Positions 14,973 to 33,640 of a DNA stretch of 64,000 nucleotides are shown piece by piece. Location of the stretch: positions 1-64,000 of the IMG/VR virus record IMGVR_UViG_3300036857_000203, one strand, 5' to 3'. How positions within the stretch are numbered: position 1 is the stretch's first letter; each line of letters begins with the position of its first letter. Origin of the DNA: a virus. The position numbers and the translations under genes were made by a program. The notes beneath the pieces were generated by a model. It made no database searches and was not told where the DNA came from. It was given only the letters and a program-made list of their open reading frames with translations.

Positions 14973-14987
14973 GTCGCGCCCCTCCTT

Positions 14988-15069
14988 GCCTGCCTCACCT
15001 CGCCGAGCCAAGCCACACCGAGGCCTGTCTTGCCGTGACGAGCCAAGCCGAGCCGAGCCGCGCCATGAA
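14988..15069 (-). ncRNA. Stand-alone GGC-NN guide unit B (14 pentamers plus GGCAGGC end)
   Basis: Intergenic minus-strand sequence AT GGC GC GGC TC GGC TC GGC TT GGC TC GTC AC GGC AA GAC AG GCC TC GGT GT GGC TT GGC TC GGC GA GGT GA GGCA GGC; same grammar as the main array. Confidence 0.8.
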
Positions 15070-21384: not shown

Positions 21385-21860
21385 ACTTCTGGGCGGACCT
21401 TCAGTACGAACCGGAAACCGGTAAGTTCTACCGGCTGAAGTCCGCTCGCAGCGTGAAGGCTGGAGATGAGGCTGGTTGCCTGAACCCCTCAACTCAGTAT
21501 TGGATCATCCGCGTCGGAGGGAGAAGTTATCGCCGTGGGCGATTGGCATGGCTTTATATGACCGGTCGCTGGCCGATCGCGCAGATTGATCACATCAATG
21601 GGGTAAAGACTGATGACCGGATCGAGAATCTCCGAGAGGCGACTAATTCACAGAACGCCTTAAACAAACGACGGACACGCCAGAACACATCAGGTTTCAA
21701 GGGCGTCACTTGGCATAAACGCACTCGCCGCTGGCATGCTCAGATCAACATCGGCGGCAAGAATAAGTACATCGGTAGTTTCCGGTCTCCCGAGGAGGCC
21801 CATGACGCTTATTGGCGGGCTGCGCAGGATGGTCACGGTGCGTTTGGGAGGAAAGAGTGA
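21381..21860 (+). CDS. HNH-AP2 homing endonuclease
   Basis: IDHINGVKTDDRIENLREAT..SGFKGVTW..WHAQI..YIGSF..EEAHDAY. Confidence 0.9.
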   Translation: MNFWADLQYEPETGKFYRLKSARSVKAGDEAGCLNPSTQYWIIRVGGRSYRRGRLAWLYMTGRWPIAQIDHINGVKTDDRIENLREATNSQNALNKRRTRQNTSGFKGVTWHKRTRRWHAQINIGGKNKYIGSFRSPEEAHDAYWRAAQDGHGAFGRKE

Positions 21861-23467
21861 AGGAACTCAGACCTTACCAAGAAGACGCCCTCCAGGCGAT
21901 CCGGCAGACGGTAGGCCAGGGGGTGAAACGTCTCGTGTGTCAATCACCTACTGGGTCAGGCAAGACGTTGCTCGCGGCAACGATCGTTGACGGCGCGCTG
22001 CGCAAGGGCAACCGGCTGTGTTTCACGGTGCCGGCGATCGACCTTGTCGATCAGACCGTGGAGATGTTCTACGCCCAGGGCATCAAGGACGTCGGCGTCA
22101 TCCAGGCTGACCACCGGATGACCAACTGGCAGATGCCAATCCAAGTCGCGAGCATCCAGACTATCCGCTCGCGCGGAATCTATCCCGAGGCCCAGGTCGT
22201 CGTCATTGACGAGTGCCACCAGTTGCACAAGGCGCACGTCAAGTGGTTGAGCGATCCTGACTGGCAAGCAGTGCCGTTCATCGGGCTCAGTGCAACTCCC
22301 TGGACGCGCGGCCTCGGGAAGCACTTCTCGTCCTTATTGGTGATGTCTACGACGAAAGAGCTGATCGAGGAGGGGTACTTATCCAGGTTCCGGGTGTTTG
22401 CGGCGGATCATCCTGATCTGAGCAATGTTCCGACCATGGGCAAGACCGGCGATTACAAGGAAGCGCCGCTGTCCACCGTGATGAGCCAGCAGCAGCTGAT
22501 GGCGAACGTGATCGAGACCTGGAGGGTGCGCCACAACGCTGACAAGACGCTGTGCTTCGCAGTTGATCGTGCGCACGCGAAGTCGCTGCAAGAGCGCTTC
22601 CTCGACGCTGGCATCTCATGCGCGTACCAGGACGCCAACACACCGAGCGCAGAGCGTGCAGAGATCAAGAGGAGATTCCATAGTGGAGATTATCGTGTGG
22701 TTTGCAGTGTCGGAACATTGTGCACGGGCGTCGACTGGGACGTCAGATGTCTCGTCTTGGCAAGGCCGACGAAGAGCGAAATGCTTTACGTGCAAATCAT
22801 TGGTCGAGGCTTACGAACGGCTGAGGGCAAGACTCACCTGCTTGTTCTCGATCACACGTCCACAACGGAGCGGCTCGGGCTGGTGACCGACGTTCACCAC
22901 GATAGCTTGTCGATGGGCAAGCTCGATGAGAATAAGGCTGCTCCGCGTAAGCCGCCGCTGCCTCGACCCTGTCCGCAGTGCAGCTGCCTGATGGCGGTCG
23001 GTGTACGAGTCTGCGAGGAGTGCGGCTTCGAGCGCAAGATCGTGTCGAAGGTCACCGAGAGAGACGGTCAGCTGGTGGAGTTCGATGGGACGTTTCGCAA
23101 GAAGGGCAAGACTGATCCCAAGTTGCTGCCGTATTCGTTCGCGGAGAAGATCAAATACTTTCAGCAGCTGCGCGGCTATGAGGTAATGCGTGGCTATCGG
23201 AAAGGTTGGGCCGCGAATCAATTCCGGGAGAAGTTCAATGAAGGCTGGCCCCCGTGGTCCTGGAACGATCTCGCACCAATGGCGCCCGGCCCCGAAGTCA
23301 CGTCCTGGATCAAATCCCGACTCATTGCATGGGCACAGAGTAAAGCTCGAACTGCTAGCGCTGCAGCTGGCACTCCACGGTCCGACAGCGGTAACACCCA
23401 GCGCAGTTCGTATTCTGGCGCGAAGCCCGCTGTGGCTGGAGACGAGACTACTCCTCCGTGGGAGTAA
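21857..23467 (+). CDS. Superfamily 2 (DExH) helicase with C-terminal zinc ribbon
   Basis: LRPYQ, SPTGSGKT, VIDECH, LSATP, GVDWD, QIIGRGLR, CPQC..CEECG. Confidence 0.92.
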   Translation: MKELRPYQEDALQAIRQTVGQGVKRLVCQSPTGSGKTLLAATIVDGALRKGNRLCFTVPAIDLVDQTVEMFYAQGIKDVGVIQADHRMTNWQMPIQVASIQTIRSRGIYPEAQVVVIDECHQLHKAHVKWLSDPDWQAVPFIGLSATPWTRGLGKHFSSLLVMSTTKELIEEGYLSRFRVFAADHPDLSNVPTMGKTGDYKEAPLSTVMSQQQLMANVIETWRVRHNADKTLCFAVDRAHAKSLQERFLDAGISCAYQDANTPSAERAEIKRRFHSGDYRVVCSVGTLCTGVDWDVRCLVLARPTKSEMLYVQIIGRGLRTAEGKTHLLVLDHTSTTERLGLVTDVHHDSLSMGKLDENKAAPRKPPLPRPCPQCSCLMAVGVRVCEECGFERKIVSKVTERDGQLVEFDGTFRKKGKTDPKLLPYSFAEKIKYFQQLRGYEVMRGYRKGWAANQFREKFNEGWPPWSWNDLAPMAPGPEVTSWIKSRLIAWAQSKARTASAAAGTPRSDSGNTQRSSYSGAKPAVAGDETTPPWE

Positions 23468-23593
23468 TCTGTTCACCGGGGCCGAGATCAACATCTTGAT
23501 GGGCGGAGTGCACCCCCATGGCTGTTGCTGCTGGGGGTGCATCCGTCAGTTACGACAGCGGGTGATAGCCCACCGTCGCAGGCTGGAGGCTAA

Positions 23594-24152
23594 GCCTGCC
23601 AAGCCCGGCCAGGACTGAACGCACCAAGCCAAGCCCGGCCCTGCCTTGCCTCGCCTCGCCAAGCCCTAGCTAGCCGGGCCAGGACTGCCACGCCAAGCCA
23701 AGCCCTGTCAGGTCCTGGCGTGCCGTGCCTTGCCGTGCCGTGCCTGCCGGGCCAAGCCGTGCCTGTCCGAGGCCTGCCGCGTCTTGCCGGGCCTAGCCCT
23801 GCCGGGCCTGCCGCGACATGCCGCGTCTTGTCAGGTCGGGACATGCCGGGCCATACCGCGCCCGCCTTGCCTCAACTGCCGCGACATGCCGAGCCTGGAC
23901 CTGCCATGTCCAGCCGTCCGAGCCGGGCCAATGCCACGCCTGCCGAGCCAAGCCAGCGTCGGGCCAAGGCATGCCGTGACATGTCATCCACGTAGATGAC
24001 GTGCCTGCCATGCCCCGCCTTGCCGCGCACCGCCGGGCCGAGCCTCGCCGGGCCAAGCCCCGCCGCACCGGGCCTGCCGGGCCGCGCCATGCCGAGCCAC
24101 GTCCCACCGGGACGCGCCACGCCAAGCCGCGCCGAGCCTGCGTTACCGTGCC
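23594..24152 (-). ncRNA. GGC-NN pentamer array: eight 59-70 nt guide-like units plus a 19-nt remnant
   Basis: The minus strand reads GGC-NN with 5-nt period (minor GGT/GTC/GAC/GCC variants). Register is reset by a 4-nt GGCA step. Units: 24075-24138, 24006-24074, 23941-24005, 23877-23940, 23809-23876, 23745-23808, 23686-23744, 23616-23685. Starts about 8 nt after the stop codon of 24161-24691. Confidence 0.85.
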
Positions 24153-24160
24153 TAAGACTT

Positions 24161-24691
24161 CTACCGTTGGGCCGCAGCCCTCGGTCTCTCCCCCGGCCGC
24201 CGACGCGGCGGCTGCGGGCGAGATGGCGGTTTCTTCTCGTCGTCTTTGCCAAGCTCATTCACGATGCTGTCGAGCCGGGCGTAGAACTCGCTTTCCAGTT
24301 TGGTTGTTCGCGCATGACCATGTGCATCGACCAGCAAGTTGCGGACTCGATCCATGAGCACTGCCAGGATGCGCGAGTTCTTCTCCTTCGTTGCACTCGC
24401 AACATCGACGTACGTGCCGACCGCCGACCTGGGATCGGGGTCGTGCCGATATCGCGGAAGCACGCGCGAGAGATCGATGTCGTTGATCTCGGGACGGGGA
24501 CAGCTACGGATGATCTCCTCGGCACGCGCCAAGAGATACCTTCGATGAACTCGCGCCGGGTCCCAATCGAACAACTTGTTCAACTCGCTGTTCTGATCCC
24601 TCCCCGCCTCCACGACATCGCGTGCGTTGATCGTGCCGTTACCGTCGCGCAGCTCATCGAGTGCGGTGATCTGCTCGGTCGTAAGATTCAT
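24161..24691 (-). CDS. Accessory protein of the RAMP-array locus (unknown function)
   Basis: Overlaps the RAMP stop codon by 4 nt. GTINARDVVEAGRDQNSELNKLFDWD..YLLARAEEIIR. Confidence 0.8.
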   Translation of the reverse strand: MNLTTEQITALDELRDGNGTINARDVVEAGRDQNSELNKLFDWDPARVHRRYLLARAEEIIRSCPRPEINDIDLSRVLPRYRHDPDPRSAVGTYVDVASATKEKNSRILAVLMDRVRNLLVDAHGHARTTKLESEFYARLDSIVNELGKDDEKKPPSRPQPPRRRPGERPRAAAQR

Positions 24692-25506
24692 GTGCTCGCT
24701 CCTGGTTGCTCGGGTTGATCGCTTGAACGAGAGCGCGTTACGGGATCGCGCCGCCGCATCACCTCAGCGTCGTACCAGCCCAGCAAGTCGGCGCTCTCTT
24801 CGTCAGCGAACGATGGATCATCGAGCGCTGCGAGCTGTGCCTCGCGCCCCTCTTTCTCGACAATGTCCATCCATTCGGGATGATCGTGGCTCACGACATC
24901 CCAGGAGCCGAAAGAGAATGCGCCGCGTTCCTGGCGCCCGTCGCCGACACCGACAATCATGCCGGCGTTCATCGCTAGATTGAGCACGTCGTCGAGCGTG
25001 ATCAGGTCGCGCACATAGCGAAAGCTCATGGAGCACGCCCAGCGCGGGAAGTAGGCGCGCGTGCGGATGTCGGGCGTCTTGGCGATGCCGGCCTGCCGCA
25101 CCATCGACATGTGCAGCTGCGGGATGCCGTACAGGAAGATCGTCGGCGTGGTTACGGTAATGAGCCGGCCCACTTCCGCTCGTGTTGCGCCCGGCGTGTC
25201 GACTGCCGCCTGGGCGAGCGCTTTCTTGATGCTGTTGCCGGGGAGGTGGACGGCGGCTGGCGCATCGGCGTCGCGGCAGCGATAGACCGAGGCGCGGAAC
25301 TCTTCGAGCGGATCGTGCTTGAGGGTGGCTGCGCGTGCTGCCCGGTTGGGAGCGCGTGGGGGGAGGAGTATCTGGCGCTTCGCCTTCTCGGTGAAGCGGT
25401 TCATCACGAGCGCGCTTGTGCCCAGGAGATGGAGAGTCGCGCCCACCATCTGCAATCGACTGATGAGCGGGCGCTCCGCACCAGTCTGCTTTGCCGCTTT
25501 CGCCAT
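24688..25506 (-). CDS. Cas7/Csm3-like RAMP-fold RNA-binding protein
   Basis: RAMP hallmarks: N-terminal strand ATLHLLGTSALVM, HLPGNSIKKAL (cf. IPGSSLKG of Csm3/Cmr RAMPs), a long insertion MVRQAGIAKTPDIRTR, and a C-terminal Gly-rich loop GMIVGVGDGRQERGAFSFGSW. Confidence 0.75.
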   Translation of the reverse strand: MAKAAKQTGAERPLISRLQMVGATLHLLGTSALVMNRFTEKAKRQILLPPRAPNRAARAATLKHDPLEEFRASVYRCRDADAPAAVHLPGNSIKKALAQAAVDTPGATRAEVGRLITVTTPTIFLYGIPQLHMSMVRQAGIAKTPDIRTRAYFPRWACSMSFRYVRDLITLDDVLNLAMNAGMIVGVGDGRQERGAFSFGSWDVVSHDHPEWMDIVEKEGREAQLAALDDPSFADEESADLLGWYDAEVMRRRDPVTRSRSSDQPEQPGAST

Positions 25507-27918: not shown

Positions 27919-28746
27919 TCACGCTTCTTGTGCTTGCGCTTCGCCATGGTCTTGCTCCTTTCTGAGTTGGGTTGAGACATAGTCGTGGTGGTCGAACGGG
28001 ATTACCGGAATGTTGTCGGCGAGCCCGTCCAGGTCGGGGCAGTCGCCGCCGATGTAGTTGGCGACCATGTGCCCGATGATCGCGCCCTGGTGGCGCTGGC
28101 GTAGCTGATAGGGCTTATCGGCGTCGGGCGGCAGCACGGTGAGCACATCGAAGAAGCTGTAGGACCCCCCCTTGTGCCGCAGCACGCCCACGGCAGTCAG
28201 TTCGGTGTTGGCGAGGCTGATCGACGTGTTCCGGTGCTTCTCGCTCTCGCGCATGATCATGCCGGCGAAGCCGCACATGGCGACCATGCCGCCGGCCTCA
28301 AAGATGTCGAGCTTGCTGCGCTCGGCAATGCCGCCCAGGGCGTGCCAGGAGAAGAACGCGAGCTTGGTGCGCTGAGCACTGAGCTTGCCTCTGCGCTGTA
28401 GCCGCATGACATAGGTGCGCACCATCACGCCATGCTCGCGGCCCGGGACCAGCGGATGCTTGTCCACCTCCCAGGTGAGTAGCTCCACGATGGCAGAGCG
28501 CTTGCGCTTGAAGTGCCCGTTGACGAAGCAGCAGCGCTCGCCCTGGGCGGCCTTGAGGCGCTGCACGCCGGCCATGAACTGGTCGGCAGCTTGCCTGGGG
28601 CCGCCCGTGATCGAGCCCAGGAACTTCTCCATGGCCTGGGTCCAGAGCGTGCAGCCCGGGGTGAGTATGCCGGCGCCCATCATCTGGCGTTCAGCCAGAT
28701 CGCGGGTGAGTTGCGCGATGAAGATGCGGCCGGCGGTGCTGATCAT
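27919..28746 (-). CDS. Hypothetical protein
   Basis: 275-aa ORF in the early operon. Confidence 0.6.
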   Translation of the reverse strand: MISTAGRIFIAQLTRDLAERQMMGAGILTPGCTLWTQAMEKFLGSITGGPRQAADQFMAGVQRLKAAQGERCCFVNGHFKRKRSAIVELLTWEVDKHPLVPGREHGVMVRTYVMRLQRRGKLSAQRTKLAFFSWHALGGIAERSKLDIFEAGGMVAMCGFAGMIMRESEKHRNTSISLANTELTAVGVLRHKGGSYSFFDVLTVLPPDADKPYQLRQRHQGAIIGHMVANYIGGDCPDLDGLADNIPVIPFDHHDYVSTQLRKEQDHGEAQAQEA

Positions 28747-29207
28747 CGCAGCATCCCCATGAAGCGGCCCTGCATCGCGTCGTAATCGTTCATGTGTAGC
28801 GGCGAGAGCGTCGCCGGCCCACGCTCGGGGCGCAGGATGAAGAAGTTCCCAGAGAGCACGTTTCCCCAGCGATCCTCGGCATTGATTATCAGCACCTCGC
28901 GCCGGTCAGGGTGCTCGCTCGGGCGCGGTCCCTCTTTCGCTTCGGTCATCGTGTTCACCGTGGCAATCCAGGCCTCGCAGATGAAGGCTAAGCGCTTCAC
29001 ATGCTTTGCCTGGAACATCATGCGCAGCCCGCGCTGGGTGATGTCCTTCTCCTCGTCGCTCGACCAGGGTGTGGCGATCAAGACGTGCTCATCATTGCCA
29101 TCGACGACATGCCACATCGGAAGAATCTCCCCGCTCTCGCCGAATATCCGCATGGCGTTCTCGGCAGCGTTGGCAAAGAAGTCTTCAAGCTCGGTCTTGG
29201 GGGTCAT
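28743..29207 (-). CDS. Hypothetical protein
   Basis: FICEAW..PSEHPDRREVL motif seen in phage early proteins. Confidence 0.65.
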   Translation of the reverse strand: MTPKTELEDFFANAAENAMRIFGESGEILPMWHVVDGNDEHVLIATPWSSDEEKDITQRGLRMMFQAKHVKRLAFICEAWIATVNTMTEAKEGPRPSEHPDRREVLIINAEDRWGNVLSGNFFILRPERGPATLSPLHMNDYDAMQGRFMGMLR

Positions 29208-33551: not shown

Positions 33552-33640
33552 GGCAAGGCAAGGCGCGGCAGGGCACGGCCCGGCGATACAGGGCTGGGCC
33601 CGGCACGGCGCGCCTCGGGGGGGGGTCATGCCCCCTCCCC
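33552..33640 (+). ncRNA. Stand-alone GGC-NN guide unit C (13 pentamers) followed by a G/C hairpin
   Basis: GGC AA GGC AA GGC GC GGC AG GGC AC GGC CC GGC GA TAC AG GGC TG GGC CC GGC AC GGC GC GCC TC, then G9-TCATG-CCCCCTCCCC. Confidence 0.8.

Follow-up and report, generated by a model that had tools for sequence, protein, structure and literature searches.

A small gene between a Cas7-like RAMP gene and a GGY-NN repeat tract in a soil phage is very probably the accessory gene vap of a VIPR system

What does a small gene without a recognisable domain do between a RAMP gene and a long repeat tract? The question is raised by positions 24161-24691 of the phage DNA analysed here, a window of 64,000 nt (positions 1 to 64,000 of IMG/VR record IMGVR_UViG_3300036857_000203) which belongs to an assembly of one contig of 72,435 bp found in three soil metagenome runs. 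A first-pass annotation of the sequence had placed a 176-aa ORF between a RAMP gene and an array, and we found this ORF on the minus strand with both flanks as described. The codon composition of the ORF (GC3 of 0.72 vs. GC2 of 0.45) matched the pattern of the other genes of the contig. The analyses given below indicate that the ORF is very probably the vap gene of a VIPR system in a soil phage of about 72 kb, and the features of the locus are named here according to this identification:

24161..24691, minus strand: vap, accessory protein of 176 aa, phrog_15946 family, partner of vipr
24688..25506, minus strand: vipr, Cas7-like RAMP protein of 272 aa, named from its predicted fold and phrog_4652
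23560..24160, minus strand: vrRNA array of continuous GGY-NN pentamers, named from its period-5 signal and unit parse
24074..24138, minus strand: first in-phase run of the array, 13 units, a putative anti-vipr guide by 1-nt-skip match

The two genes are tightly joined. The letters TCAT at 24688-24691 of the plus strand read ATGA on the minus strand, so that the ATG of vap shares 4 nt with the TGA of the 272-aa vipr gene, and an AGGAG sequence lies 8 nt 5' of the vap ATG. These features are in line with the translational coupling to the RAMP gene that had been proposed before, and the overlapping start and stop codons imply that Vap and Vipr would be co-translated in stoichiometric amounts. On its other side, the vap stop codon leads into the repeat tract of about 600 nt, which begins within about 25 nt.

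The 272-aa protein had no match in Pfam, and neither Vipr nor Vap was matched by PADLOC. Vipr did match phrog_4652 (E of 4e-12). Its structural model, built on 60 relatives, had a pLDDT of 87.7, and Foldseek searches with this model retrieved Csm3 chains of type III-A complexes (E of 1.2e-5) among a total of 51 chains that reached E ≤ 0.001. The best chain found by VIA-align was also Csm3 (Z of 9.5, rmsd of 3.6 over 150 residues), followed by Cmr4, gRAMP and Cas7-11 at Z of 8-9, and the 50 best VIA-align chains were nearly all Cas7, Cas5 or Cas6 proteins. The label of RAMP protein that the first-pass annotation gave to the upstream gene is thus supported by its predicted fold. Residues G186, G188, D189 and R191 within the G-loop of Vipr (G.GDGR) show no variation, and R150 in the thumb is almost invariant. 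The model also contains a helical C-terminal extension of about 60 residues.

VIPR is a CRISPR-related DNA silencer that was first described in 2026 in two preprints (bioRxiv 10.64898/2026.04.26.720920 and 10.64898/2026.04.26.720927), and the account given here follows parts of these two texts. VIPR loci are phage-borne and typically consist of vipr, which encodes a minimal RAMP protein, and vap, flanked by vrRNAs of alternating GGY and NN (10.64898/2026.04.26.720920). For the type II systems of Escherichia phage SUSP1 and of a P. fulva prophage, it is described that protomers of Vipr form a polymer on the vrRNA and flip out each GGY, while the NN dinucleotides pair with double-stranded DNA, with one base skipped per unit, and in this way VIPR silences the genes of rival phages (10.64898/2026.04.26.720920, 10.64898/2026.04.26.720927). 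Seven VIPR types and six vap families are named (10.64898/2026.04.26.720920, 10.64898/2026.04.26.720927). Vipr and vrRNA alone suffice for type II silencing (10.64898/2026.04.26.720920), and the alpha-bundle of Vipr itself is described as doing a Cas11-like job (10.64898/2026.04.26.720927).

The Vipr of SUSP1 (195 aa, 28474-29061) matched phrog_4652 with an E of 1.4e-96 and thus belongs to the same family as the Vipr of the window. Aligning the window's RAMP alignment with SUSP1 Vipr by hhalign gave a probability of 96% (E of 3.5e-9) over 52 columns that comprise the thumb and the G-loop. In this alignment, R150, D189 and R191 of the window's Vipr correspond to R138, D177 and R179 of SUSP1 Vipr, which are RNA contacts, two of them shown by mutation to be needed (10.64898/2026.04.26.720927). 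The two proteins also differ: the stacking Trp178 of SUSP1 is replaced by Gly in the window's protein, and the latter is longer (272 vs. 195 aa) because of its C-terminal extension. The Cas7/Csm3-type fold and the phrog_4652 membership shared with the tested SUSP1 Vipr therefore identify the locus as a VIPR system. Like the described VIPR systems, the locus has a two-gene operon of a minimal RAMP gene and a small accessory gene with a GGY-NN array on the same strand, and a conserved G-loop Asp and Arg and a thumb Arg in Vipr. One putative guide would follow the wobble-skipping code toward the vipr of another system. The Vipr of the window is expected to polymerise on its vrRNA.

The locus also resembles the backbone of Class 1 CRISPR-Cas effectors, i.e., a Cas7 filament with Cas11, in that a RAMP protein with a G-loop and thumb is encoded beside a small, largely helical protein. 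It differs from Class 1 CRISPR-Cas systems, however, in lacking a repeat-spacer array, Cas5, Cas6, Cas10, Cas3 and adaptation genes, and the period of the VIPR RNA is 5 nt, compared to 6 nt in CRISPR. The previous suggestion that no Cas6-like or nuclease gene is nearby was roughly right, with the qualification of an HNH-AP2 gene at a distance of 2.3 kb, which recurred in only 2 of 162 related loci.

The repeat tract gave the strongest period-5 signal in the 64 kb (23560-24160), its autocorrelation being 0.47-0.51 at lags of 5, 10 and 15 and 0.18-0.35 at lags not divisible by five. A parse of the tract on the gene strand gave 54 five-nt GGY-NN units and ten 4-nt units, together with some degenerate units that keep the period. 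The GCC-NN of the plus strand corresponds to GGC-NN on the gene strand, and this orientation agrees with that of the relatives. All ten 4-nt units lie within 23748-24081 (nine GGCA and one GGCG). The phase shifts that they cause recur at intervals of 30-70 nt, and the units may represent junctions between staggered guides. Two other explanations of the tract were discarded. A CRISPR repeat-spacer array was rejected, as the units are 5 nt long and the tract has no repeats or spacers of 25-40 nt, while an iteron replication origin or other protein-binding DNA tract was dropped in view of the strand-specific association with the RAMP gene and the VIPR preprints. The array of the first-pass annotation is thus real as a period-5 tract, not as a CRISPR array but as a VIPR vrRNA array. 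No variants of the array were found in the contigs from the three soil runs, which were identical wherever they overlapped the stretch.

The array of the window is one continuous tract of about 600 nt, whereas the SUSP1 guides are separate units with pseudoknotted tails. An Rfam scan of the array gave no match at E ≤ 1, hammerhead ribozymes included. The absence of a hammerhead match and the continuity of the array fit the description of continuous "staggered" arrays with 1-nt overlaps in legend S18 of one of the preprints (10.64898/2026.04.26.720920).

The published 1-nt-skip rule was applied by script to 2.7 Mb of collected sequence. The NN letters of the first in-phase run (24074-24138) matched vipr in antisense and in frame, such that the skipped base is the wobble position. 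Matches were found at 22 of the 26 positions in the vipr of relative L004 and at 21 of the 26 in the phage's own vipr (25175-25212), in homologous codons around 99-111. The mean best match of this run over 142 non-redundant vipr genes was 17.4/26, compared to 14.8 for shuffled guides. The run is thus probably an anti-VIPR guide whose owner would be spared by five mismatches, which agrees with the remark in the preprint that some guides aim at other VIPR systems (10.64898/2026.04.26.720920). The other four of the five in-phase runs of the array had no target above shuffles in the 2.7 Mb, and the 489 runs surveyed across all loci gave no excess over shuffles in the same sequence either. On the match of one guide out of five runs, the array may be a working code.

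To what extent vap belongs to this system was addressed by scans in both directions. In the forward scan, the RAMP alignment was used for pattern and tblastn searches of IMG/VR, which gave 489 relatives; the best 80 of these were taken, and two Gordonia phages obtained by tblastn were added to give 82 loci. The converse scan used a sub-alignment of the partner family, from which the best 80 of 402 relatives were taken. A vap family member was carried by 77 of the 82 RAMP-found loci, nearly always directly downstream and on the same strand, and the sequences of the remaining five all end 30 to 614 nt past vipr. Conversely, all 80 partner-found loci had the RAMP gene adjacent on the same strand. 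The co-occurrence with the RAMP gene that the first-pass annotation had proposed to check was thus observed in both directions, and the occurrence of the family independently of RAMP genes and arrays, which it had named among the findings that would refute its proposal, was not borne out, all 80 of the partner-found loci having the RAMP gene.

Collapsing identical RAMP genes left 142 non-redundant loci, which represent the closest relatives rather than a full census. Among them, 134 had the order vipr-vap, four had the order vap-vipr and four were cut by the end of the contig, so that the two genes were adjacent on the same strand in 138/142 and on opposite strands in none. Start and stop codons overlapped by 1 or 4 nt in 78 of the 134 vipr-vap loci. 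When a tract was defined as at least 11 of 20 in-phase pentamers beginning with GG per 100 nt, a GG-phase tract was present on the gene strand in 71 of the 82 RAMP-found and 63 of the 80 partner-found loci, where it almost always touched the gene pair, and on the opposite strand in only 1/82 and 0/80, respectively. These observations support the repeat tract as part of the vipr-vap module on the same strand. Of the other neighbours of the window's gene pair, the helicase gene recurred in 9 of the 162 related loci, the cro-like gene in 4 and the HNH gene in 2.

Vipr, vap and an array are also found in the Gordonia phages ODay (gp19 and gp20) and Pipp (gp42 and gp44). In Pipp, the deposited "hypothetical protein" gp43 (locus L001, 4599-4868) coincides with a GGY-NN array that separates vipr gp42 from vap gp44, and gp43 is most likely a guide array and not a protein gene. 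In ODay (locus L002, 2700-5655, genes 16-21), the cassette comprises two HTH genes, vipr gp19, the array, vap gp20 and another small gene, and is flanked by the genes for the tail assembly chaperones on one side and by the tape measure gene on the other. This odd place among tail genes suggests that the ODay cassette is a mobile module. The trio of vipr, vap and array is kept across very distant phages, among them Gordonia phages as well as high-GC phages of soil, and the vap family is effectively obligate for a large clade of Vipr with continuous arrays.

The sequence motif that the first-pass annotation had considered common in hypothetical phage proteins corresponds to residues 19-62 of the 176-aa protein and proved to be a family signature, with a consensus from 72 aligned sequences of G.L.P..VV.AARD..SPLH..FEWDD..AA...RL.QAR.LIR. 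Full-library phmmer searches yielded 178 cluster representatives of the family at E ≤ 1e-3. Of the 72 aligned members, 70 matched phrog_15946, to which the window's own Vap gave a weak match (E of 0.014). At codon 38 of vap (24578-24580) the window encodes Asn, where a His is nearly invariant in the family (at least 90% of the 72 sequences), and at position 30 the protein has Gly, where Ala is nearly invariant among the 72 sequences. Searches of Vap against Pfam, NCBIfam and PADLOC gave nothing meaningful, the PHROG search gave no function, and a PDB sequence-profile search returned coiled-coil noise only. Likewise, tblastn of Vap against 50,697 phage records gave no match at E ≤ 1e-3; the Gordonia homologues were found by profile only and not by tblastn. 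No fused or longer forms of Vap were found, which is weak evidence by the tool's own grading. The family has a median pI of 6.7, with a basic tail in 25 of the 72 members and an N-terminal part of 100 residues that is slightly acidic, in contrast to the basic Vipr (median pI of 9.0). The family is thus not uniformly basic, and Vap does not have the look of a classic DNA-binding domain.

The model of Vap (pLDDT of 91) consists of an alpha/beta domain (residues 1-98) with four helices and a small sheet, followed by a long helical hairpin (102-152) and a tail that is basic and proline-rich in the subclade of the window. The conserved motif belongs to the alpha/beta domain. Foldseek searches of the PDB with this model gave nothing at E ≤ 0.001, the best match of a wide VIA-align search covered the hairpin only (Z of 5.0), and a pdb_via search reached a Z of 2.2. 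Matches to the C-terminal hairpin filled the result lists, with no PDB match over residues 1-98. It should be noted that the lack of any winged-helix or HTH match comes from searches by which the N-terminal domain was barely probed, and that the lack of any match to a nuclease, Cas6, an RRM fold or Cas11 likewise comes from fold searches dominated by the C-terminal hairpin. A BFVD search identified one unnamed viral protein (E of 8e-4), and the ESM Atlas returned unnamed viral clusters together with weak structural similarity (TM of 0.34) to accessory domains from SF2 helicases and Mrr-type proteins. Prediction of a complex of Vipr and Vap gave a score of 0.00, a result without a verdict that is evidence neither way.

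The vap with which Vap of the window can best be compared is vap1 of SUSP1 (KT454805, 28031-28471; phrog_5926), the only vap for which the preprint's account of these genes gives an experimental result (10.64898/2026.04.26.720920). Like vap1, the window's vap lies directly after vipr and before the array, encodes a protein of similar size (176 vs. 146 aa) and has no enzymatic domain. The two belong to different PHROGs (phrog_15946 vs. phrog_5926), however, and have no detectable sequence relation, the hhalign probability between vap1 and the Vap family being 0.05%. Thus, the analogy is one of position only. Co-expression of vap1 raises protection, and in the passages that deal with them vap genes are described as apparently taking part in DNA interaction and are given no processing role; one predicted class of DNA-binding vap is WH-like or HTH-like (fig. 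S21) (10.64898/2026.04.26.720920). The structural preprint calls the role of the accessory genes unclear (10.64898/2026.04.26.720927).

By analogy with vap1, which raises protection but is dispensable for recognition, we tentatively favour the reading that Vap acts as an enhancer, i.e., that it would assist the Vipr-vrRNA filament after or alongside its assembly or during target engagement and would be unneeded for reading the code. Vap would then bind the Vipr filament, the target DNA or both, making silencing stronger or longer-lived. The conserved N-terminal domain might serve as a docking module and the helical hairpin as an oligomerisation element, while the basic tail of the window's subclade could provide a contact with nucleic acid. 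A role in guide processing, as a ruler or as a capping factor, by which Vap would set or protect the ends of the vrRNAs or nucleate or cap the filament in the manner of Cas6 or Cas5, is also conceivable, though on the whole unlikely. Its attraction is that the guides lie head to tail behind vap without individual tails, the array beginning almost at the vap stop codon, whereas the SUSP1 guides are separate, with their own promoters and structured 3' tails. The strict pairing of the vap family with continuous-array loci, the lack of an Rfam ribozyme in the array, and the GGCA units, which could mark guide junctions of the kind expected in the staggered arrays of legend S18 (10.64898/2026.04.26.720920), point the same way. 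Against such a role, the fold searches with Vap retrieved neither a nuclease nor Cas6 nor an RRM fold, the window's protein carries Asn in place of the nearly invariant family His, Vipr and vrRNA are sufficient in type II, and the preprint links vap genes with DNA interaction (10.64898/2026.04.26.720920). A bolder form of this idea, which we consider improbable, is that the family is the Cas6/Cas5 equivalent of VIPR, reading the GGCA phase-shift units, nucleating or capping filaments there and setting the guide boundaries. If that were true, Vap would represent an early non-RAMP form of guide maturation in a lineage proposed to precede CRISPR.

Two further explanations carry still less weight. 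Vap might hold back or time the assembly of the Vipr filament, or protect those genes of the phage itself that come close to matching. The near-self match of the first guide, the acidic N-terminal domain of Vap beside a basic Vipr and the stoichiometric co-translation implied by the start/stop overlap would suit such a regulator or self-protection factor, but vap1, the one that was tested, strengthens protection and does not damp it (10.64898/2026.04.26.720920), and the five mismatches may already spare the owner, which leaves this role very improbable. That vap is an unrelated early phage gene merely adjoining vipr has next to no likelihood: its place next to a Cro/YdaS-like gene within the early region and the absence of a recognisable domain could be so explained, but not the same-strand adjacency found in both sets of loci across phages of Actinobacteria and high-GC soil phages, in which the other neighbours are not conserved. 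Among all of these, the enhancer role remains the one that we favour.

The VIPR system itself is already known from the 2026 preprints, and the locus of the window adds an example with a vap family unlike vap1. As this family is effectively obligate in a large Vipr clade and unrelated to the tested vap1, it is a good subject for finding out what vap genes do. The annotation of public records can also be improved, in that phrog_4652 can be named Vipr and phrog_15946 a Vap family, and in that gp43 of Pipp is deposited as a protein gene.

The VIPR locus is embedded in the early region of the phage (15076-23467 and 25547-33128), which encodes an Erf-like annealing protein, an exonuclease, a DNA methyltransferase and the HNH-AP2 endonuclease, in addition to an SF2 helicase, a Cro/YdaS-like regulator and an AAA ATPase (phrog_8638). 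The helicase (21812-23467) was considered as a part of the system and rejected, as it occurs in few of the related loci and is unrelated to Vap. Short GGY-NN tracts are also found about 9 kb to either side of the VIPR locus, at 14980-15066 on the minus strand and 33552-33611 on the plus strand, and no targets above shuffles were obtained for them in the 2.7 Mb. One of the two separates the Erf gene from the gene that follows, at whose ribosome-binding site the tract ends, while the other is antisense to its neighbouring genes. These dispersed tracts are probably orphan guide cassettes.
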